From the NCBI GenBank assembly GCA_965223665.1, contig OZ245011.1, forward strand, positions 64,001 through 128,000: a stretch of DNA of 64,000 nt, read 5' to 3'. Origin of the DNA: Nitrospinaceae bacterium. Its GTDB lineage: Bacteria; Nitrospinota; Nitrospinia; Nitrospinales; Nitrospinaceae. This document shows, piece after piece, positions 34,812 through 44,652 of this stretch (position 1 is its first letter; each line of letters starts with the position of its first letter). The notes beneath the pieces are model-generated. The model searched no databases and was not told the DNA's origin. It was given only the letters and a program-made list of their open reading frames with translations. The position numbers were made by a program, and so were the translations under genes.

Positions 34812-35591
34812 TTAATAAACCTTTACTGTTTTTCCGAGTGGTTTTTTGAAATATTTTGATGCATTTCTCTTGTAGCAAAAAATTTCAATGCATCCCCAAC
34901 TATTTATCAAAGCCCCTAATTCTCCGATTTTTTTATCACTGTATGTTTTTGACAGGTTCTTTATTTTATGGCGACCACACTCTAAAAACCAATCACCTTT
35001 TTTTCTTAAATGGGGTTCTATGTTTGCAAGTTTTAGGTTAGTCATCATATTACCAAATCGATCAATGTAGGTTACTTCCCCAAAAAGATTTTTTCCCTTA
35101 TAAAACGGTTGAGGCAATTTAATCATTATTGGGTTTGACAGCTTATCTCCAATAGTACTTATTGGGGTTCCTTTTGCTAAATGGGCGGCGATGGGAGCAA
35201 AAATATCTCTGCCATGGAAAGTTGATGATACAGGGTTTAAAAAATATTTAGCCTTTGAAATTTCGAATACTTTTGACTTGGAACACAAAATTGGGGATAA
35301 AACTCCATTATCTGGCCCAATAAAAATATGTTGTTTATGTTTGACTGCAATAGGTTTTCGTTTACCTCCCACCTCGGGGTCGACTACGACTAAATGAATA
35401 GATTTTGTGGGAAAGTAATTCCAGAAACTATCCAAAACTCTAGCAGCTTGTTCAATATCTTGTGATTCGATTTGATGGGTTATATCAATTAATTGAGCTA
35501 CGGGAGCAATTTTTAATATTACTCCTTTCATGATTCCAACAAAAGGATCATTTAAACCAAAATCAGTGGTAAGCGTGATTAGGGAAGGCAT
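34812..35591 (-). CDS. SAM hydroxide adenosyltransferase (DUF62 family)
   Basis: TTDFG, VVDPEVG..R, GPDNG, STFHGRDIFAP, YIDRFGN. Confidence 0.9.
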   Translation of the reverse strand: MPSLITLTTDFGLNDPFVGIMKGVILKIAPVAQLIDITHQIESQDIEQAARVLDSFWNYFPTKSIHLVVVDPEVGGKRKPIAVKHKQHIFIGPDNGVLSPILCSKSKVFEISKAKYFLNPVSSTFHGRDIFAPIAAHLAKGTPISTIGDKLSNPIMIKLPQPFYKGKNLFGEVTYIDRFGNMMTNLKLANIEPHLRKKGDWFLECGRHKIKNLSKTYSDKKIGELGALINSWGCIEIFCYKRNASKYFKKPLGKTVKVY

Positions 35592-37033: not shown

Positions 37034-37078
37034 AATGGCCTCATTCCGATAGACCGTTTGCCCCACCAAAGAAGGCTT

Positions 37079-37345
37079 ATGAATAAAGTCCAAAAAGATG
37101 TGCGTACGTTTCTTGAAAAATGGTTGGACAAAACTGTTCGCCAATATATTTCCAAAATGGATGGTAAAGAAAATGGCCATTTGCACGATTTAATTATTGG
37201 TGGGGTAGAGAGGCCCTTATTAGAAATTGTACTTCAGGAAACCCAGTATAATCAGACCAAAGCTTCCAATATTTTAGGTATTAACCGAAATACCCTAAGA
37301 AAAAAAATTCAAGAACATAAAATCAAATGCAAAAAGACCACTTAG
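37079..37345 (+). CDS. fis: Fis-like DNA-binding protein
   Basis: VERPLLEIVL and HTH NQTKASNILGINRNTLRKK. ATG 37079 follows an AAGG SD; the ORF track starts at TTG 37058. Confidence 0.82.
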   Translation: MNKVQKDVRTFLEKWLDKTVRQYISKMDGKENGHLHDLIIGGVERPLLEIVLQETQYNQTKASNILGINRNTLRKKIQEHKIKCKKTT

Positions 37346-38076
37346 CGGTCGTTATTTTAGCCGCGGGAAAAGGGAAACGGATGAAGTCAGACCTTCCTAA
37401 GGTATTGCACGAATTAGGATCAAAGACTTTATTGTCTCATGTTTTAGAAACTGTGAAATCGTTAGCTCCTGAAAGGACGGTCATAGTTGTTGGGCACCAA
37501 GCTAAAAAAGTGGAGTCTCAATTTTCGGATCATAATAATGAGTTTGTAGTGCAAAAAGAACAATTGGGAACCGGTCATGCCGTGCAGCAAGCTCAGGAGG
37601 TTTTGGAAAATTTTGAAGGTAATGTACTTATACTTTGTGGAGATATGCCCTTATTAAAAGAGTCGACTTTGAAGAATTTAATAAAATCCCATGAAAACTC
37701 GAGTGTTGAGTGTACTTTGTTAAGTTTAAAGACGAAAGAGCCAAAGGATTTTGGTCGTATTGTCAGGGATGTTGAAGGGAATGTCAGTCGTATTGTAGAA
37801 TTTAAAGATGCAACGGAGATGGAAAAAGCTATTGACGAATACAACTCTGGAGTTTATTGTTTTAATAAGAGTATTCTTTTCAAGATATTACAGTCAATCG
37901 ACAACAAAAACTCCCAAAGTGAATTCTATTTGACCGATGCAATTCGGTTATTGACCGAGGGAGGGAATTTTGTGCAGTGTGTTCAAACCAATGACGATGC
38001 TGAAATTCTTGGAATAAACTCTAAAGCCGATTTAAAAAAGGCGGAAGAAATTTTTTATTCGCGTAAAAATGTTTAA
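37327..38076 (+). CDS. glmU: GlcNAc-1-phosphate uridylyltransferase (GlmU N-terminal domain only)
   Basis: LAAGKGKRMKSDLPKVLH, QLGTGHAV, GDMP, GRIVR, IVEFKD, EFYLTD, GINS. It stops at the linker helix with no left-handed beta-helix. Confidence 0.85.
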   Translation: MQKDHLAVVILAAGKGKRMKSDLPKVLHELGSKTLLSHVLETVKSLAPERTVIVVGHQAKKVESQFSDHNNEFVVQKEQLGTGHAVQQAQEVLENFEGNVLILCGDMPLLKESTLKNLIKSHENSSVECTLLSLKTKEPKDFGRIVRDVEGNVSRIVEFKDATEMEKAIDEYNSGVYCFNKSILFKILQSIDNKNSQSEFYLTDAIRLLTEGGNFVQCVQTNDDAEILGINSKADLKKAEEIFYSRKNV

Positions 38077-38118
38077 GCCTTTAATAGTTTTTATAAATAA
38101 TTCTATAATTACTCAAAT

Positions 38119-39324
38119 ATGAAAGCTGTCATATTAGCAGCCGGTCAATCGAATAAGCTAACACCCTTTTCAGATACGCGACCCAACCCAATGATTTCCG
38201 TGGCTGGAGGTTATCTTTTTGGCCATAGTTTATCTTTGCTTAAAAGCGCAGGGATCAATGACATCTTTGTTGTTGTGGGACATAAAAAAGAGAAACTGAT
38301 TGAGCATGTTGGCGAATTATCAAATAATGGATTAAATCTCCAATTAGTGGAACAAAAAAAACCATTGGGTATTGGAGATGCAGTTCTTCAGATTCGAAAG
38401 AAAATATCTCCGGGTGAATACTTCCTGTTGATTTATGGAGATATTATTACGGCATCCAATATATATTCTAAAACGCTTCAATCGTTTCATGCGTTCAAAA
38501 GCCCGGTCGCATCGATTTGTTTGCCTCCTTCAAATGAAATGTTTGGTAATGTTTTCTTAAATGCCAATATGTCTATTACCAACATTATTGAAAAACCTAA
38601 AGGAAATGATCTAGGTAACTATGTATTGTCCGGCGTTTATATTCTTCCCGAATCATTTTTCTCGATTTTAGAAAAAAGTAAGAAATCAATGGAAAAAGCT
38701 ATTCAAAAACTTGTGAAACAAGAAGGGCTGCGTGCTTCAATGTGGGAAGATGAATGGCTAGACATTGTTTATCCTTGGGAAATTCTAACGGCTAATCGGT
38801 TGATTATGGATTCGTGGGAAAGTTCTTCCATTTCCAAGTCTGCAACTTTAGAGTCCAATGTAACTATACAGGGTACAGTTCATATTGAAGATAATGTAGT
38901 CATTAAGGCGGGAGCTGTTTTAGAGGGACCCTGCTATATTGGAGAAGGCGTTTATATTGGAAATAATACTTTAATTCGAAGTTACACATCCATGGGATCC
39001 AAATGTTCAGTAGGATATGGAGTGGAACTAAAAAATTGTGTTGTGCAAAGCCGTTCTCACATAGGTAGATTGTCGTTTATTGGAGACAGTGTTCTAGGGG
39101 AAAATGTAGATATTGGTGCGGGAACCATGACAGTGAATCGACATCTGGATTGGGAAACGGTTAAATGGAAACAGGGTAAAAAGCCCATTGATACTAAGAG
39201 AACCAAACTAGGATCTTTTATTGGTGATAATGCCATTGTGGGAGCTGGTAATACTATTCAACCTGGTACGGTTATTCCACCAGGAAAAGTATTGCCTCCT
39301 AGGTTTTCGGTTATGAATAAATAA
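38119..39324 (+). CDS. Archaeal-type bifunctional sugar-1-P nucleotidyltransferase/acetyltransferase homologue with degenerate catalytic motifs
   Basis: NTP-transferase fold (YGD, IIEKP, WLDIVYPWE), hexapeptide repeats and the archaeal-GlmU-like tail TKLGSFIGD. Confidence 0.8.
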   Translation: MKAVILAAGQSNKLTPFSDTRPNPMISVAGGYLFGHSLSLLKSAGINDIFVVVGHKKEKLIEHVGELSNNGLNLQLVEQKKPLGIGDAVLQIRKKISPGEYFLLIYGDIITASNIYSKTLQSFHAFKSPVASICLPPSNEMFGNVFLNANMSITNIIEKPKGNDLGNYVLSGVYILPESFFSILEKSKKSMEKAIQKLVKQEGLRASMWEDEWLDIVYPWEILTANRLIMDSWESSSISKSATLESNVTIQGTVHIEDNVVIKAGAVLEGPCYIGEGVYIGNNTLIRSYTSMGSKCSVGYGVELKNCVVQSRSHIGRLSFIGDSVLGENVDIGAGTMTVNRHLDWETVKWKQGKKPIDTKRTKLGSFIGDNAIVGAGNTIQPGTVIPPGKVLPPRFSVMNK

Positions 39325-39343
39325 TTTACTTTCTTAAGACTAT

Positions 39344-41164
39344 ATGTGTGGAATCAGCGGGGCCGTCGGCCTTAATGACATTTCAAATTTATTATTCGAA
39401 AGCATCAGAAACTTGGAATATCGTGGATACGATTCCTGTGGTGTTGCTTTGATGAATAATAAATCGATTATTGTTAAAAAGAATACGGGAGAAGTGAAAG
39501 CAGTTTATGATAAAGAAAGTATTTTAAGGCATACCTCTAAAATGGGAATAGCTCATACCCGATGGGCCACTCATGGGAAGGTTACCAAAGAAAATACTCA
39601 TCCTTTCTTGTCGGGTGATAAAAAATTTGCAGTTGTGCATAACGGTATTATTTCTAACTATGATGCCCTAAGGTCAACTTTAATTAAGGAAGGTCATAAG
39701 TTTTGCTCCGAAACTGATACGGAGGTGATCCCTCATTTGCTTGAAAAATTTTACAAGCAAGTCAAGGATGTTGAAACAGCGCTGGTGAAGACTTTAAACG
39801 TATTGGAAGGAACCTTTGCTATTGCCATGATTTCCTATTACAAACCAGAGCATATTTATTGTGCCAAAAGAGAGTCTCCTTTATTACTGGGAATCGGAGA
39901 TGAAGTTAAATTTGTGGGTTCCGATTTTAATTCGTTCATCGATTATACAAAAAACGCAGTTATTATTGATGATGATGAGTATGCCATTATTACCAAGGAT
40001 AGTTTTGTTGTAAAAAACTCTATTACCCGCGAGGAAATTAACAAACCCATAACCAAAATCGAATGGGATAGTGAAACATCTAAAAAAGGTGGCTATCCTC
40101 ACTATATGTTGAAGGAAATTCATGAGCAGCCCCAAACTGTGATTAATGCCTTAAAAATTCCGGAAAGCACTATTGATCAAATGGTGGATTTGATTCATGA
40201 AAGTTCAACTTGCCATTTAATCGGAGTAGGGACTACTTTTTACGTGGCAATGTATGCCAATTACGTATTTTCAATTTATGCCGGAAAATTTATTCCGGCT
40301 ATTAGTTCGGACGAATTTGCCTCATTATCTCCTGTTGAAGAAAATAGTTTTGTTCTGGCAGTTTCTCAATCAGGAGAAACCTATGATACGCTTTCTGCGC
40401 TCAAGTATGCACAATCTAAAGGTGCAAAGACAGGTGCTATTGTGAATGTAATGGGCTCATCTTTAGCGCGTTTAGTGGATTGCACTATTCTTCAAGGTTC
40501 AGGACCAGAAATATGTGTTATTAGTACTAAGGCGGCATTTACGCAAATGGTATTGTTAACGAAAATTGCTTTAAAATTGGGGCTGAAGCGAAAGTTTATT
40601 TCGAAAAAACAATATAATGAAAACCTAAATGCATTGAAGGAAATGCCCGAAATCATCCACGGGATTTTAAATGAACGTTCTGGGTTTATCCATCGAATTG
40701 CTCATCAGCATGCTCAAGTAAAGCATTGGTTATATTTAGGAAGAGGAATCTATTATCCCGTTGCCTTAGAGTCAGCTTTAAAAATGAAAGAAGTTGCTTA
40801 TGTGCACGCAGAAGGTATGCCATGTGGTTTTTTGAAGCATGGAACTTTGGCGATGATAGATTCAAATATAAATTCAATTGTTTTTATTCCACCAAAGAAT
40901 GATAAAGAATTGTATGAAGCTACATTGGCCAGTGTTGCCGAAATTCGTGCTCGATCCGGTTATGTTTTAGGAATCCATTTTGATGAGCGTGGAAAAAATA
41001 AAGACCTTTTTAGTGAAGAGCTAATTCTACCGCCGGTGCCTCAAATCACGGCACCTCTTATTCAATTAATAATTGCTCAAATGTTGGCTTATTTTACTGC
41101 AACCTCCCTCAAAAGAAACGTGGATAAGCCGCGTTCTCTTGCCAAATCTGTAACAGTAGGTTAG
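39344..41164 (+). CDS. glmS: Glutamine--fructose-6-phosphate aminotransferase (isomerizing)
   Basis: MCGI, EYRGYDS, HTRWATHG, HNGI, SETDTE, SQSGET, KMKE, LKHG, LAKSVTV. Confidence 0.93.
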   Translation: MCGISGAVGLNDISNLLFESIRNLEYRGYDSCGVALMNNKSIIVKKNTGEVKAVYDKESILRHTSKMGIAHTRWATHGKVTKENTHPFLSGDKKFAVVHNGIISNYDALRSTLIKEGHKFCSETDTEVIPHLLEKFYKQVKDVETALVKTLNVLEGTFAIAMISYYKPEHIYCAKRESPLLLGIGDEVKFVGSDFNSFIDYTKNAVIIDDDEYAIITKDSFVVKNSITREEINKPITKIEWDSETSKKGGYPHYMLKEIHEQPQTVINALKIPESTIDQMVDLIHESSTCHLIGVGTTFYVAMYANYVFSIYAGKFIPAISSDEFASLSPVEENSFVLAVSQSGETYDTLSALKYAQSKGAKTGAIVNVMGSSLARLVDCTILQGSGPEICVISTKAAFTQMVLLTKIALKLGLKRKFISKKQYNENLNALKEMPEIIHGILNERSGFIHRIAHQHAQVKHWLYLGRGIYYPVALESALKMKEVAYVHAEGMPCGFLKHGTLAMIDSNINSIVFIPPKNDKELYEATLASVAEIRARSGYVLGIHFDERGKNKDLFSEELILPPVPQITAPLIQLIIAQMLAYFTATSLKRNVDKPRSLAKSVTVG

Positions 41165-41243
41165 TCTATCCAATAATTTTTTACCTTACGCCATAAGTGT
41201 GCAGGTTATCTGTGCCTATTTTTTAATTTAAAAGTTAATTTAT

Positions 41244-42632
41244 ATGAGAAGAGTTAATACGGTCTTGACTGTCGCTGGGTCTGATTCTAGTGGAGGTGCT
41301 GGCATTCAAGCTGATATAAAAACCATTGGAGCCCATGGTTTGCTTGGGACTTCTGTGATTACTTCTATAACTTCACAAAATTCTTATGGAGTTCAAGCGA
41401 CCCATCACTTGGATCCAAAGCACATTGAATCCCAATTAAAGTCTATTTTTGAAGATTCAAAGCCTTCAGCTGTAAAAACAGGAATGTTGGGAGAAGGAGA
41501 AATCGTAAAAGTAGTTTCCAAATATTTGAAAAAATATAAAGTGAAAAACTTGGTGGTAGATCCCATCCTATTGTCAACCAATGGATATCCTTTGCTTTCG
41601 AAGGAAGGGATCCGGGTAATGGAAAACTTATTATTTCCACTTGCTAAATTGGTAACACCGAACTTGTCAGAAGCAGAAAAATTATCCGGAGTCCGCATTA
41701 AAAAAGCATCGGATCGAATAAAGGCAGCACGTTCAATATTAAAAAAAGGGGTTCAGGGAGTTTTGATTAAAGGGGGGCATGCAATTGATAATGCTGACGA
41801 TTTTTACTTTGATGGGAAAAATAAGGTTATTTTTCCCGGAAAGCGTTTTCCCATGGAAAATCTGCATGGAACTGGATGTGTACTTTCTTCGGCGATTGCT
41901 TCATGTTTGGCTAAAGGTGAATCCATTATTGAGGCCATTCAAAATGCAAAAAATTTCATAAATGTAGCAATTAGCCAGGGAATATTCCCAGGTAATGGAG
42001 CGGGTTGCGTTGATCCTCTAGGCAAATTTTATGAGAAGCAATTAAGAGAGGATCTTATCCAGCAAGTGACCCAAATGGTAGAAAACTTAAAATCTTATCC
42101 ATTAGGATACTTAATTCCAGAGGTTCAATCTAATATCGGAGTGGGTCTGTCTGGAGCCTTTTCGCCTGATGATGTGGTAGCTATTCCAGGAAGAATAGTT
42201 AAAAAAGGTAAAGGAATTTATACTATTGCATCCCCTGAATTTGGAGCCTCACGGCATGTTGCAAAAATTGTTTTGACCGTAATGCGTGCCGATGAGTCAA
42301 GGCGTGCAGTGATGAATATTAAGTTTACGGACTCCTTGCTAAAAATATGCAATAAATTGGGATTTAAAATTAGTTCTTTTAGTCGTTATAAGGAGCCCAA
42401 AAATATTAAGCAATTGGAAGGGTCCTCATTAGAATGGGGAACTTACCAGGCTATTTCAGACCTTGGAGAAGTACCTGATATAATTTTTGATGTAGGTGGG
42501 CAGGGTAAGGAAGAAATGATCCGAGTTATTGCAAAAGACTCTGCAGATTTGCAGAAGAAAATATTAAAAATTCACCGTCTTGCTTTAAAAGAACTCCCAG
42601 ATAAAGAGATAGATCGATGGAGAAAGAAATAG
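41244..42632 (+). CDS. thiDN: Bifunctional HMP/HMP-P kinase + ThiN-type thiamine-phosphate synthase (ThiDN)
   Basis: ThiD motifs GSDSSGGAGIQAD, KTGML, TPNLSE, KGGH, HGTGC. ThiN motifs IPEVQSN, PGRI, GASRHVA, EGSSLEWG, DVGGQGKE. Confidence 0.9.
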   Translation: MRRVNTVLTVAGSDSSGGAGIQADIKTIGAHGLLGTSVITSITSQNSYGVQATHHLDPKHIESQLKSIFEDSKPSAVKTGMLGEGEIVKVVSKYLKKYKVKNLVVDPILLSTNGYPLLSKEGIRVMENLLFPLAKLVTPNLSEAEKLSGVRIKKASDRIKAARSILKKGVQGVLIKGGHAIDNADDFYFDGKNKVIFPGKRFPMENLHGTGCVLSSAIASCLAKGESIIEAIQNAKNFINVAISQGIFPGNGAGCVDPLGKFYEKQLREDLIQQVTQMVENLKSYPLGYLIPEVQSNIGVGLSGAFSPDDVVAIPGRIVKKGKGIYTIASPEFGASRHVAKIVLTVMRADESRRAVMNIKFTDSLLKICNKLGFKISSFSRYKEPKNIKQLEGSSLEWGTYQAISDLGEVPDIIFDVGGQGKEEMIRVIAKDSADLQKKILKIHRLALKELPDKEIDRWRKK

Positions 42633-42732: not shown

Positions 42733-44652
42733 TTAAGACAACCCTTTTGGGATATCAAACCATTCCATTTCATCCACTTTTTTCCCAAAATACTTTGCGC
42801 CCTCTAAAGTGTAATGGTGATGATCAGAATATATTTTTTCGAAATTTTCTGTGACAATACTGCATTTACTTTTTCTGACGGAACATTGATAATCAATCTT
42901 TTTCAGAAATAATATTCCATATTTTGACGCAATTGATTTTAGTTTTTTATTTATAGCGCTCGTTTTCTTTTTCCTTTTATTGAATAAATCTTGCTCAGCT
43001 TGGTCTTTTTTAAATAAAGCGAAGTCGCCATTTATATTGCTAACTATATCATCTAAGAGCGTATTATTTTGAGGTTTAATTGGCCACTCTTCTGATTTAG
43101 ATAAAAGAATCACTTTCTTTTCATTTGCTAAGAGAAATTTAATAAAATTTTCAATATAGCTCAATTCATTTCCATTAAATGAATCACTAATTACAACAAT
43201 TCTAGCTTTTTGGAATTCTTGGCTTTCAATACACTCCTTAGTTCTTTCTATACCTCCTTTTTCTATTTCATCAATATATTCTTGATCATTCTTATCATTT
43301 GAAAAAAAGACCAATCGGAGATCACATAGTTCAAAATTATAAAACTTCACGTATTTGGTGCTGTGTATCAATTGAAAAAAATCGAAACCATGACTATCTC
43401 CCCAAACTAGTACATCTATTAAACCTGGTTTTTTGAATTTATCAAAATAATTCCAACCCCTATCAAAATTACTTTTTCGCAAGCTTAAAAGATAATTGTT
43501 ATCATAAACATATCCTTGGAACCTGTTTTTTGAATGTTTTGAATTCCATCCTATGGATATTAAGGCAACCGATAAAATAAATATCATCTGAAAAAAAACT
43601 TTTCTTTTTACTAATTGATTATTTCTAAAAATCTTTTCAACAAAAAAATAACTTATAAATGAACATAAAAAGGTCAAAATAATTAAATAAAGCTTTTGAT
43701 AATTTAAAATACTCCCTAACTGGATCCTAGCGAAAGCAAATATAGGAAAGTGCCAAAGATAAAGTGAATAAGAAATCTTTCCAACAAAATTTATTATTTT
43801 TGAAGACAATAATTTAGAGGCAATATCTATTTGATTTGAAAACCAGATGATTAAGCAACTGCCCAATACAGGAATTGAGGTCCAAATAGAAGGGTGTCTA
43901 GTTTGTTCATCAAAATATAAAAATGATATTATAAGAGTGGTCAAACCAATAGGAGGCATTGTTTTTTGCCAAATCTCCTTAAGTTTTCTCCCTCTACCCA
44001 GAATTTCAAAATAGCTTAATAATACACCTGTGCCTAATTCCCATAACCTTGTATGAATATAATAAAATGTTTTTGATGGCTGGTTTAGGGAACCCCATTC
44101 CGCTAAAAATAAGCTTAAAATTTCAAGTCCAATTAGAAGCGGTAAAAAGTATTTTGGAGATTTTTTTAAAAAGTAAAAACATGTGATCGGAAGTATAATG
44201 TAAAATTGCTCTTCAACTGAAAGAGACCAGGTGTGTAAAAATGGCCTCAATAATCCATCGGTAGCTCCATATTCAATCCCAGAATAATAAAAAAATATAT
44301 TTGATAAAAAAAATATTGATGAAAAAATTGAGTTAATAAAATTAGAAAAATTGGTGGGTAATAGAACAAAGTAAGCAATTGGAATGCTGGTAAATATGAC
44401 AAGATATAATGCGGGTAAAATTCGTCTGGCTCTTCTTTCATAAAAATTTAAAAAACTAAAACCGTTGCTTATTTTTATTTCATAAATAATAATTCTTCCT
44501 ATCAAATAACCGCTGATTACAAAAAATATATCTACCCCGATATATCCTCCTTCAATCCAAAATTGTTCAAAAAGGACAATTTCAGCGTGATACATTATAA
44601 TGCCCAGAACTGCAATAGCTCTGAGCCCATCAATGTCAGTTCTGTATTTCAC
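42733..44652 (-). CDS. OafA/OatA-like O-acyltransferase (acyltransferase-3 + SGNH domain)
   Basis: DIDGLRAIA, GVDIFFVISG, RRARRILP, HTWSLSVEEQFY, SYSLYLWH; SGNH-like GDSH and DHHH. Confidence 0.9.
   Translation of the reverse strand: MKYRTDIDGLRAIAVLGIIMYHAEIVLFEQFWIEGGYIGVDIFFVISGYLIGRIIIYEIKISNGFSFLNFYERRARRILPALYLVIFTSIPIAYFVLLPTNFSNFINSIFSSIFFLSNIFFYYSGIEYGATDGLLRPFLHTWSLSVEEQFYIILPITCFYFLKKSPKYFLPLLIGLEILSLFLAEWGSLNQPSKTFYYIHTRLWELGTGVLLSYFEILGRGRKLKEIWQKTMPPIGLTTLIISFLYFDEQTRHPSIWTSIPVLGSCLIIWFSNQIDIASKLLSSKIINFVGKISYSLYLWHFPIFAFARIQLGSILNYQKLYLIILTFLCSFISYFFVEKIFRNNQLVKRKVFFQMIFILSVALISIGWNSKHSKNRFQGYVYDNNYLLSLRKSNFDRGWNYFDKFKKPGLIDVLVWGDSHGFDFFQLIHSTKYVKFYNFELCDLRLVFFSNDKNDQEYIDEIEKGGIERTKECIESQEFQKARIVVISDSFNGNELSYIENFIKFLLANEKKVILLSKSEEWPIKPQNNTLLDDIVSNINGDFALFKKDQAEQDLFNKRKKKTSAINKKLKSIASKYGILFLKKIDYQCSVRKSKCSIVTENFEKIYSDHHHYTLEGAKYFGKKVDEMEWFDIPKGLS

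Follow-up and report, generated by a model that had tools for sequence, protein, structure and literature searches.

The 64,000-nucleotide stretch analysed here (the window) comes from a Nitrospinota genome and carries the gene order Fis-like ORF, GlmU-N, P401, GlmS, with the last three ORFs all on the plus strand. The source organism is a relative of nitrite oxidisers. The features of the locus are as follows, with the evidence for each in brackets:

37058..37345, plus strand: small Fis-family HTH protein, 95 aa (ORF; PF02954 HTH_8, E 6.5e-13)
37327..38076, plus strand: GlmU-N, uridylyltransferase domain alone, 249 aa (TIGR01173; solved GlmU chains; kept residues)
38077..38118, no strand: intergenic spacer, 42 bp (ORF coordinates)
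38119..39324, plus strand: P401, two-domain GlmU paralogue of the ST0452 fold, 401 aa (HMM, alignments, structure model)
39344..41164, plus strand: GlmS, canonical glutamine--fructose-6-phosphate transaminase, 606 aa (TIGR01135; identity to E. coli GlmS)
41199..41215, plus strand: terminator-like hairpin followed by a T-run (consensus scan only)

The Fis-family ORF runs 19 nt into the start of glmU-N, is colinear with the operon in 29 of 30 Nitrospinota loci and probably stands first in it; scores from Fis-specific models fall below their cut-offs. P401 ends 19 bp before the start of GlmS. The hairpin and T-run lie 35 nt past the glmS stop and may mark the operon end, a weak indication on its own, with the terminator consensus scan returning 5 sites where shuffled sequence would give 5.6. 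Searching the window against Rfam gave no match to the glmS ribozyme or to any other family, so there is no sign here of the RNA-level controls known for glmS.

GlmU-N is clearly orthologous to the N-terminal domain of the bifunctional GlmU of bacteria such as E. coli and S. pneumoniae, and its gene lies upstream of glmS in the window, as glmU does in E. coli. Only positions 2-240 of the 452 in TIGR01173 were matched (289.7 bits, below the 366.85 cut-off), while residues 8-248 align to solved GlmU chains with an E value of about 1e-62, reaching to about 246-254. The protein ends in the linker helix, lacks an LbH domain, and in alignment has every E. coli uridylyltransferase residue present, including R18, K25, Q76, G81, T82, D105, E154, N169, E195, Y197, T199 and N227. 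Model coverage and residue alignment thus agree with the first-pass annotation, which had described a half-GlmU with intact uridylyltransferase motifs ending at the linker helix, and the coordinates bear out its remark that no acetyltransferase remnant follows, the 42-bp gap being too short to hold one. The downstream GlmS scored 620.5 bits against TIGR01135 (cut-off 418) and is 35% identical to E. coli GlmS over its full length.

P401 comprises a nucleotidyltransferase (NT)-like domain (about residues 1-230) and an LbH domain (about 231-401), and no account of it turned up in the literature searched. The protein matches Sulfolobus tokodaii ST0452 over its whole length (2ggo; E 1.6e-52, residues 1-387), passes the archaeal GlmU model TIGR03992 just above its cut-off (305.4 bits; cut-off 292.1), and its AlphaFold model (pLDDT 84.6, pTM 0.85) superposes on ST0452 with a TM score of 0.85, all of which agrees with the archaeal-GlmU architecture initially proposed. 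By Pfam it is an NTP_transferase plus LbH protein, with LbH_EIF2B scoring 69.5 bits (cut-off 54). However, unlike ST0452 and the canonical TIGR03992 enzymes, P401 has lost catalytic residues from both domains. The P-loop reads GQSNK..RPNP compared with GSGER..RPKA in ST0452, and the ExxxTD loop is deleted, leaving a gap at the S-x-RGE-x-ELTD of canonical relatives; both changes had been called from the sequence at first pass and were seen again in the alignments. Relative to E. coli GlmU, the P-loop Arg and Lys, the Thr of the GTG motif and the sugar-binding Asn are replaced (R18 by K13, K25 by N23, T82 by I85, N169 by L170 and N227 by V217), and the E195/Y197 loop is deleted. In the acetyltransferase domain, H363, Y366 and N377 correspond to R317, F320 and D331, confirming the reported change of HLSY to RLSF (GRLSF here, PHLSY in ST0452), while the other pocket residues R287, E303, K305, A334, N340 and K363 are kept. 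In PMC11947611 the key catalytic residues of the acetyltransferase are given as E348 and H362, by the numbering of S. aureus/S. pneumoniae, and of this pair P401 has the Glu (E303) but not the His. Two details of the first-pass annotation needed amendment: N340 is indeed kept, but it is equivalent to E. coli N386 and not N377, whose counterpart is D331, making this a third altered active-site residue; and His314, although present in our sequence, is not conserved among relatives (H 42, Q 39, R 19, others; 120 rows), and so cannot be a relocated catalytic base.

We examined conservation in an alignment of 120 rows (the query and 119 of the 120 matches listed, at 69-98% identity, with P0082 left out for length). 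R317, L318, S319, F320, G322, D323, S324, N340 and R341 were invariant in all 120 rows, whereas position 13 was H38/K37/N32/R6/Q5/S1 (one row not listed) and position 23 was I81/N26/L7/S3/T3; the P-loop is unconstrained in an otherwise very conserved protein. Across five genome pairs dN/dS was 0.015-0.048 for P401, 0.012-0.071 for GlmS and 0.09-0.22 for GlmU-N, and P401 is more conserved than the neighbouring GlmU-N. P401 is under strong purifying selection and is a core gene in Nitrospinota, with an orthologue in 60 of 61 genomes (67-77% identity across the order, 51-57% across the class), and both the substitutions and the glmU-N/P401/glmS synteny are retained, the latter in 30/30 Nitrospinota loci. 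The best orthologue matches are stop-free in 59 of 60 cases, the remaining one, in genome G007, holding a single TAA. The loss of catalytic residues in both domains might suggest an archaeal-type GlmU in decay, left without function, but the low dN/dS, the invariant RLSF, the near absence of stops and the distribution across the phylum rule this out.

In a paralogue tree of 140 rows, the clade containing P401 (42 rows) has R (32), S (7) or G (3) at the catalytic position and no His, whereas His is found in 91 of the 98 rows of the other clade. On this sequence evidence P401 and the working enzyme are paralogues rather than orthologues, and the P401 clade is old and common to Asgard and TACK archaea, which also retain canonical GlmU; in three genomes, two from Heimdallarchaeum and one from Freyarchaeota, a canonical copy (458-521 bits) occurs together with a variant (312-332 bits). 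The rewiring of the operon is therefore not a local event, which could not be seen at first pass. Among variants without the P-loop Arg, GlmS lies directly downstream in 18/19 bacterial loci and on the same strand in 19/32 Heimdall-type loci (12 within 176 bp), with no GlmS nearby in the other 13, while none of the 19 loci of Asgard-like variants with GxGxRL..PK has GlmS. Linkage of the variant to GlmS is thus kept across domains of life. The catalytic-position Arg is replaced by Gly in 13/32 Heimdall-type loci, and is therefore not essential to the role of these archaeal relatives.

A pseudoenzyme at this position would require another route for glucosamine acetylation, as pointed out at first pass. 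No full-length GlmU was found elsewhere in the genome (0 matches over cut-off), and the candidate route was not a GNAT but an LbH protein encoded 3 Mb from the window genes, adjoining a phosphohexomutase:

G000:C1:3128327-3129127, minus strand: LbH259, LbH acetyltransferase with intact His/Tyr/Asn, 259 aa
G000:C1:3129131-3131212, minus strand: PHM694, GlmM-like phosphohexomutase, 693 aa

LbH259 matches Arch_glmU best (positions 247-393, 139 bits), and alignment indicates that it corresponds to the C-terminal half of a GlmU of archaeal type, with the last NT-domain segment retained. It keeps the equivalents of E. coli GlmU R333, E349, K351, H363, Y366, N377, A380, N386 and K392, all 24 loci carry its GHF[NA]Y motif, 23 of them with PHM694 adjacent, and 59 of 61 genomes have an orthologue. 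Deeper relatives join these genes with the window genes in one five-gene operon, ordered glmU-N, P401, glmS, PHM694 and LbH259, in 11 loci. Judged from sequence, the route from fructose-6-P to UDP-GlcNAc is complete without P401, through GlmS, PHM694, LbH259 and GlmU-N.

We modelled GlmS with P401 residues 1-394 in one prediction job using shallow, unpaired alignments of 20-21 rows. The three runs gave ipSAE values of 0.61, 0.62 and 0.72 (median 0.62) compared with 0.00 for the best of three controls, with contact agreement of at least 82% and partner pLDDT of at least 85. The ipSAE mark used is reached by 58/80 solved complexes and 2/110 mismatched pairs, counts that are only rough here because our own alignments were used. 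In the model, the P401 NT-like domain sits on the glutaminase/isomerase hinge of GlmS and the adjoining isomerase surface, with predicted docking residues 239-264, 439-454, 549, 558-561 and 587; on the P401 side the predicted contact includes 145-148, 166-168 and 206-210. Conservation was 0.90 at the P401 contact and 0.80 in the remainder of the NT-like domain (the contact value is matched by 15 of 10,000 random sets), with 23/37 contact residues invariant against 60/193 elsewhere in that domain. Across 29 Nitrospinota sequences the GlmS contact scored 0.94 compared with 0.77, a value that none of 10,000 random sets reached. These tests pool surface, buried and pocket residues and, as they use kin sequences, overstate significance. 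Within the contact, L[ND]E at GlmS 442-444 is present in all 13 bacterial variant-linked GlmS of alignment A5, which are 48-56% identical to the window GlmS, and 10 of these have LNERSG. The L[ND]E motif is absent from eight Heimdall-type GlmS and from E. coli GlmS, and the P401-GlmS interaction may therefore be confined to bacteria.

P401 is best read, from its residues, as a GlmU-derived pseudoenzyme that has lost those needed for chemistry in both domains, and as modelled it most likely binds GlmS. Our leading reading, held with as much reserve as confidence, is that it has no catalytic role and binds GlmS as a regulatory or scaffolding subunit. Adjacency to glmS would be expected of any pathway enzyme, and the near-intact acetyltransferase pocket and invariant replaced motif also fit an enzyme of altered chemistry. 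Such an enzyme, working in amino-sugar metabolism, might be an LbH acyltransferase without the general-base His, in which a phosphate or carboxylate is positioned by the invariant Arg, or might act on a sugar phosphate other than the canonical GlmU substrate; use of a GlmS-derived intermediate would explain its retention beside glmS. LbH N-acetyltransferases without the catalytic His exist, GRLSF[IV]GDS and VNR are invariant in 120/120 rows, P401 and GlmS have similarly low dN/dS, and the Asgard members with a complete P-loop show that the clade is not uniformly dead. However, the His, which PMC11947611 gives as catalytic, has changed together with the Tyr and Asn, the Arg is itself Ser or Gly in 10/42 clade members, the P-loop drifts among close relatives, and in the operon of deeper relatives other conserved genes cover all four known steps, leaving no unassigned reaction for P401. 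We consider an altered enzyme unlikely.

P401 might instead serve chiefly as a structural scaffold on which the split GlmU is put back together, without a sensing role. Its LbH domain would form mixed trimers with LbH259, or GlmU-N would pair with its NT-like domain, and the two half-enzymes, perhaps with GlmS as well, would be brought into a single complex for channelling. GlmU-N lacks the trimerising LbH domain, LbH259 is a C-terminal half, the three co-occur throughout the phylum and share one operon in 11 loci, and complexes of inactive and active paralogues have been solved (GMPPA/GMPPB, 7d72, and VTC1-KJC2, 8yre, among the matches listed). Against this, the Heimdall-type variant adjoins GlmS in loci where bacterial GlmU-N was not found, two Heimdallarchaeum genomes searched carry a full-length canonical GlmU elsewhere, so that the partner conserved across lineages is GlmS and not the split halves, and it is the NT-like domain that contacts GlmS in the model. 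A pure scaffold seems to us distinctly improbable. Of the two functions first proposed for P401, all checks run favour that of a pseudoenzyme regulating or scaffolding either GlmS or the half-GlmU, with conservation, LbH259 and the complex model in support, while the non-canonical acetyltransferase is weakened.

Inactive nucleotidyltransferase/LbH proteins acting as regulators include GMPPA with GMPPB, KONJAC (KJC) with VTC1, the non-catalytic subunits of ADP-glucose pyrophosphorylase, and eIF2B gamma and epsilon. Like these, P401 combines lost catalytic residues with strong conservation, and fold and sequence matches place it in the same fold family as GMPPA/GMPPB (7d72-7d74) and VTC1-KJC2 (8yre). 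GMPPA-type proteins bind their own catalytic paralogue, whereas the modelled partner of P401 is the unrelated amidotransferase/isomerase GlmS, whose step comes three earlier in the pathway. In Bacillus subtilis, GlmR (YvcK) binds UDP-GlcNAc and interacts with GlmS, according to PMC7525490, and the logic proposed for P401, as a proposal only, is likewise end-product sensing with direct GlmS contact, although no fold or family similarity was seen between GlmR and P401. In contrast to bacterial bifunctional GlmU, the enzyme here is split, with the acetyltransferase step assigned to the distant LbH259.

As P401 keeps the ST0452 fold and most residues contacting the sugar phosphate and uridine, its remnant pockets may bind a pathway metabolite (UDP-GlcNAc, UTP, GlcN-1-P or acetyl-CoA) while the NT-like domain would dock at the GlmS hinge. 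Pocket occupancy could then tune GlmS activity, or hold GlmS in a complex with other pathway enzymes; ligand sensing by P401 and any direction of regulation are inferences. GlmS is the first enzyme of cell-wall sugar synthesis, and it is at this step that control by P401 would act.

Four colinear ORFs on the + strand make up the hexosamine operon in this Nitrospinota host genome (4.35 Mb, 98.6% complete), and these are listed here with their surroundings.

34812-35591, - strand: 259-aa ORF, SAM-hydrolase-like (DUF62), a likeness by eye only
37058-37345, + strand: Fis-family HTH protein, 95 aa (Pfam and HMM scans)
37327-38076, + strand: GlmU-N, uridylyltransferase half of GlmU, 249 aa (ORF)
38119-39324, + strand: P401, ST0452-type GlmU paralogue, 401 aa, 42 bp after GlmU-N (ORF)
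39344-41164, + strand: GlmS, 606 aa, 19 bp after P401 (ORF)
41199-41215, + strand: terminator-like hairpin after glmS (scan; weak on its own)
41244-42632, + strand: ThiD-ThiN fusion, phosphomethylpyrimidine kinase plus ThiN-type thiamine-phosphate synthase (PF08543 and PF10120)
42733-44652, - strand: 639-aa multi-pass membrane ORF, acyltransferase-3/SGNH-like by eye only

The Fis-family ORF, which encodes a small DNA-binding protein, overlaps the start of glmU-N by 19 nt and may be translated together with the operon. Immediately 3' of the operon stands the ThiD-ThiN fusion gene, whose ThiN domain is mostly archaeal. An Rfam scan of the whole 64-kb window returned neither a glmS ribozyme nor any other family at gathering score, and RNA control of glmS was set aside on this basis.

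The first-pass annotation had described a half-GlmU that ends at the linker with its motifs intact and is followed after 42 bp by the next gene, and this description holds, with the spacing given by the ORF coordinates. GlmU-N scored 289.7 bits against the bacterial bifunctional GlmU model TIGR01173, below the cut-off of 366.85, and covered only model positions 2-240 of 452. Solved GlmU chains align to it as far as the linker helix, in which the protein ends, so that it has no C-terminal LbH acetyltransferase domain. Alignment with E. coli GlmU (A4) showed R18, K25, Q76, G81, T82, D105, E154, N169, E195, Y197, T199 and N227 (E. coli numbering), which we take to be the active-site residues of the uridylyltransferase, to be identical in GlmU-N.

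P401 scored 305.4 bits against the archaeal model TIGR03992 (Arch_glmU), just over its cut-off of 292.1, and ST0452 aligned with it end to end (E 1.6e-52). Its predicted structure (pLDDT 84.6, pTM 0.85) superposes on ST0452 (5z0a/2ggo) with a TM of 0.85, and HMM, full-length alignment and fold therefore agree on the two-domain ST0452 architecture proposed from the sequence. We compared P401 with E. coli GlmU, a canonical Heimdallarchaeum GlmU and ST0452, presuming the roles of the residues compared, including those of the ST0452 acetyltransferase. The alignment bore out the altered signatures reported for both domains, in the P-loop, the ExxxTD loop and the HLSY motif. In the nucleotidyltransferase domain P401 reads GQSNK and RPNP in place of GxGxR(L/M) and the P-K Lys, with changes (E. 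coli to P401) of R18 to K13, K25 to N23, T82 to I85, N169 to L170 and N227 to V217, and with the E195/Y197 loop deleted, while Q76, G81, D105 and E154 are kept. In the acetyltransferase domain the catalytic His and the HLSY Tyr are replaced (H363 to R317, Y366 to F320, each in 120/120 rows of the family alignment), N377 has become D331, and R333, E349, K351, A380, N386 and K392 are kept. Residues contacting uracil and sugar phosphate are thus retained in P401 itself (Q79, G84, D108, E158; R287, E303, K305, K363). The downstream Asn noted earlier, N340, is indeed preserved, but it corresponds to E. coli N386, and it is the N377 equivalent that has changed to Asp. Likewise, H314 is variable in the family alignment and therefore cannot substitute as a relocated catalytic base. 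A Glu and a His (E348/H362, S. aureus/S. pneumoniae numbering) are given as the key catalytic residues of the GlmU acetyltransferase in PMC11947611.

An orthologue of P401 is present in 60/61 sampled Nitrospinota genomes, the sole exception being G043, a genome 90% complete whose only match was a different transferase of 26% identity. The order glmU-N/P401/glmS was found in 30/30 Nitrospinota loci, with the Fis-like ORF colinear in 29/30. Pairwise dN/dS over five genome pairs was 0.015-0.048 for P401, 0.012-0.071 for GlmS and 0.09-0.22 for GlmU-N, and both the substitutions and the three-gene synteny are thus kept under purifying selection. In a family alignment of 120 rows (P401 itself with 119 of its 120 top-scoring matches, a 377-aa fragment being left out), R317, L318, S319, F320, G322, D323, S324, N340 and R341 were invariant, while position 13 was H/K/N/R/Q/S and position 23 was I/N/L/S/T. 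These two positions are, we assume, residues needed by every active sugar-1-P nucleotidyltransferase, and since they drift in a protein ~70% identical across an order, a nucleotidyltransferase role is very unlikely. Unlike the P-loop, the replaced acetyltransferase motif is absolutely constrained in these rows. P401 combines an NT plus LbH fold, loss of catalytic residues and purifying selection, which are the marks of a regulatory pseudo-nucleotidyltransferase.

A full HMMER scan of 1.84 billion representatives gave 482 proteins with E values no higher than 1e-30, and 137 of the best 150 (13 dropped for length), the query and two Nitrospina relatives were placed in a midpoint-rooted FastTree of 140 rows, from which two clades were split. 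The canonical clade (98 rows) has His at the catalytic position in 91, and nearly all of these also carry the ExxxTD loop, the GTG Thr and an R/K P-loop residue. The variant clade, containing P401 and set apart from the canonical GlmU enzymes, has His in none of its 42 rows (R 32, S 7, G 3), a variable position 13, a G-I/V-G motif and a deleted ExxxTD loop. Its source names include Heimdallarchaeum, Hodarchaeota and Desulfurococcales/Thermoprotei, and when genomes were scanned the variant turned up across many Asgard lineages, as well as on contigs with SAR324, Gemmatimonadota and other labels. In each of three genomes, two of Heimdallarchaeum and one of Freyarchaeota, a canonical copy (458-521 bits) co-occurs with a variant (312-332 bits), and the canonical Heimdall copy has all motifs intact. 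This coexistence identifies the variant as a paralogue that has a function of its own rather than as a peculiarity of one lineage. Homologues 49-77% identical to P401 also occur in MAGs labelled Alphaproteobacteria (L068) and Nitrospirae (L050, L110, L125, L127, L188), labels which probably reflect mis-binning or mislabelling rather than transfer.

Existing annotations name P401 'bifunctional GlmU' or 'glucose-1-phosphate thymidylyltransferase'. A protein that passes the HMM cut-off and has the fold, but which lacks both catalytic signatures and clusters away from the canonical enzymes, should not, judged on its sequence, be classed as a bifunctional GlmU. Such names would put both GlmU activities on the wrong gene and mislead metabolic reconstructions.

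The question of how glucosamine is acetylated, raised by the pseudoenzyme interpretation, led to two genes elsewhere in the host genome.

G000:C1:3128327-3129127, - strand: LbH259, 259-aa LbH acetyltransferase (Arch_glmU C-terminal half)
G000:C1:3129131-3131212 (also L018:196-2274), - strand: PHM694, 693-aa GlmM-like phosphohexomutase (Pfam PGM_PMM_I and III)

TIGR01173 gave 17 matches in the genome with none over cut-off, the best besides GlmU-N and P401 reaching 61.9 bits or less, and no hidden full-length GlmU was thus found. The other route that had been anticipated was found in LbH259, whose best family match is to Arch_glmU positions 247-393 (139 bits) and which keeps the equivalents of R333, E349, K351, H363, Y366, N377, A380, N386 and K392 (E. 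coli numbering), the His, Tyr and Asn among them. The 'alt_bact_glmU' model TIGR03991 was rejected for both P401 and LbH259 (89.3 and 98.9 bits, respectively, vs a cut-off of 225.3). An LbH259 orthologue is present in 59/61 genomes, with its His-x-x-Tyr motif in 24/24 loci and PHM694, which sits directly upstream, adjoining in 23/24. No canonical GlmM exceeded the cut-off in the genome (best 199.9 vs 447.55 bits), and this best match, of 468 aa, appears by its motifs to be of PMM/PGM type. PHM694, whose second half carries extra sequence and where Pfam detects just domains I and III, shows GlmM-like N-terminal, active-site-Ser and metal-binding motifs, and these and its linkage make it the better GlmM candidate. 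Furthermore, deeper Nitrospinota and bacterial MAGs provide 11 loci where glmU-N, P401, glmS, PHM694 and LbH259 stand in one row. With this five-gene unit, every known step on the way from fructose-6-P to UDP-GlcNAc, four in all, can be putatively assigned to a gene other than P401, leaving P401 as an apparent fifth component without a reaction to perform.

We also recorded the presence of GlmS at loci of the His-less clade, the loci being mutually related and not independent, so that the counts describe a pattern.

Heimdall-type, P-loop Arg lost: GlmS in 19/32 loci, same strand, upstream, 12 within 176 bp
Bacterial, P-loop Arg lost: GlmS in 18/19 loci, directly downstream
Bacterial, P-loop Arg kept: GlmS in 2/2 loci
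Asgard-like, GxGxRL..PK kept (L162-L185): GlmS within 6 kb in 0/19 loci

Bacterial GlmU-N is absent from the archaeal variant loci, which points to GlmS as the partner conserved across lineages. The 19 loci with an intact P-loop are mostly labelled Asgard (Baldr-, Odin-, Hel-, Hod-, Freya-, Borrarchaeota) or uncultured archaeon, one (L167) being labelled bacterium Candidatus Deferrimicrobium sp., and their products may retain nucleotidyltransferase activity alongside an LbH domain that is not catalytic. Two MAG loci (L188:4164-5975 and L199:3-1532) carry a second, divergent GlmS-like ORF, 30-31% identical to that of the window, immediately upstream of the P401 homologue, with a normal GlmS also downstream.

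A complex of GlmS (alignment A5, 21 rows) with P401 residues 1-394 (alignment A1, 20 rows) was then modelled, as the first-pass annotation had suggested, and the predicted complex passed. The three runs gave ipSAE values of 0.61, 0.62 and 0.72 (median 0.62) vs 0.00 for the best of three controls, agreed in at least 82% of contacts and had a partner pLDDT of at least 85. The mark used is reached by 58/80 solved complexes and 2/110 mismatched pairs, a calibration that is only rough for our own alignments. No solved structure of GlmS bound to a partner with the P401 fold is known to us, and a pass from a memorised structure therefore seems unlikely. The model supports rather than shows direct binding of P401 to GlmS, with predicted contacts in the NT-like domain of P401 (residues 43-45, 114-126, 135-151, 160-168 and 205-210) and at GlmS residues 239-264, 439-454, 549, 558-561 and 587. 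By alignment to E. coli GlmS, 239-264 comprise the interdomain linker and the first isomerase-domain helix. The contact was better conserved than its surroundings, at 0.90 vs 0.80 for P401 (15/10,000 random sets reached this value) and 0.94 vs 0.77 for GlmS (29 Nitrospinota sequences; 0/10,000 sets), in tests which pool surface and buried residues and related sequences. Within the contact, L[ND]E occupies GlmS 442-444 in 13/13 variant-adjacent bacterial GlmS of A5, with LNERSG at 442-447 in 10/13 and Gly or Ala at 447 in 12/13; the L[ND]E motif is missing from the eight Heimdall-type GlmS and E. coli GlmS.

The reading we favour, at about an even chance of being correct, is that P401 is a GlmU-derived pseudoenzyme predicted to dock on the hinge of GlmS. 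Its retained contact residues for uracil and sugar phosphate suggest that it probably senses a metabolite of the pathway and would then modulate GlmS or organise a pathway complex, with both the sensing and the direction of control being our inference. We consider an enzyme with altered chemistry unlikely, while giving it real weight because the pocket is almost intact and the motif replacing HLSY does not vary; the drifting P-loop residues speak against nucleotidyl transfer. That P401 serves purely to scaffold the two halves of GlmU is more doubtful still. That P401 is a decaying remnant or pseudogene has next to no probability, being ruled out by its dN/dS and its presence in nearly all sampled genomes.

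The pseudoenzyme interpretation is supported, and it now extends beyond a single operon to an ancient family of paralogues. More tentatively, and with less confidence than we place in hinge binding by P401, this family (Heimdall-type Asgard archaea, Nitrospinota, SAR324- and Gemmatimonadota-labelled loci) may clamp the GlmS hinge and impose end-product feedback on hexosamine synthesis. As an inactive NT plus LbH paralogue proposed to be a regulator, P401 resembles GMPPA, KJC, the non-catalytic AGPase subunits and eIF2B gamma/epsilon, and GMPPA/GMPPB and VTC1-KJC2 complexes were among its structural and sequence matches. Unlike the partners of these inactive proteins, the one modelled for P401 is GlmS and not its own paralogue, which would make GlmS a new target for a pseudo-nucleotidyltransferase of the regulatory kind.

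How GlmS is controlled determines the flux that enters peptidoglycan, lipopolysaccharide and protein glycans. This control is known to be exerted by a ribozyme, by small RNAs with RapZ, by GlmR in Bacillus and by UDP-GlcNAc feedback in eukaryotes. GlmR of Bacillus is described in PMC7525490 as a UDP-GlcNAc-binding protein that interacts with GlmS; P401 is similar in its proposed logic and unrelated in fold. In the literature searched, which covered few subscription journals, we found no description of P401, of a split Nitrospinota GlmU or of a GlmU-like GlmS partner.

Whether or not P401 acts on GlmS, the genes show that Nitrospinota make UDP-GlcNAc via a split GlmU, formed of a bacterial N-half and an archaeal-type C-half encoded separately beside an unusual mutase. 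A conserved GlmS-binding pseudo-GlmU, if true, would be a further, unreported solution to GlmS control, and would give both Asgard archaea and the marine nitrite oxidisers, which are of global importance, a first candidate regulator of GlmS. Eukaryotic GFAT carries UDP-GlcNAc feedback within itself, and the proposed family would be a prokaryotic, protein-based equivalent of this feedback, as well as a prokaryotic relative of the eukaryotic NT plus LbH enzymes turned regulators, GMPPA and eIF2B gamma/epsilon.
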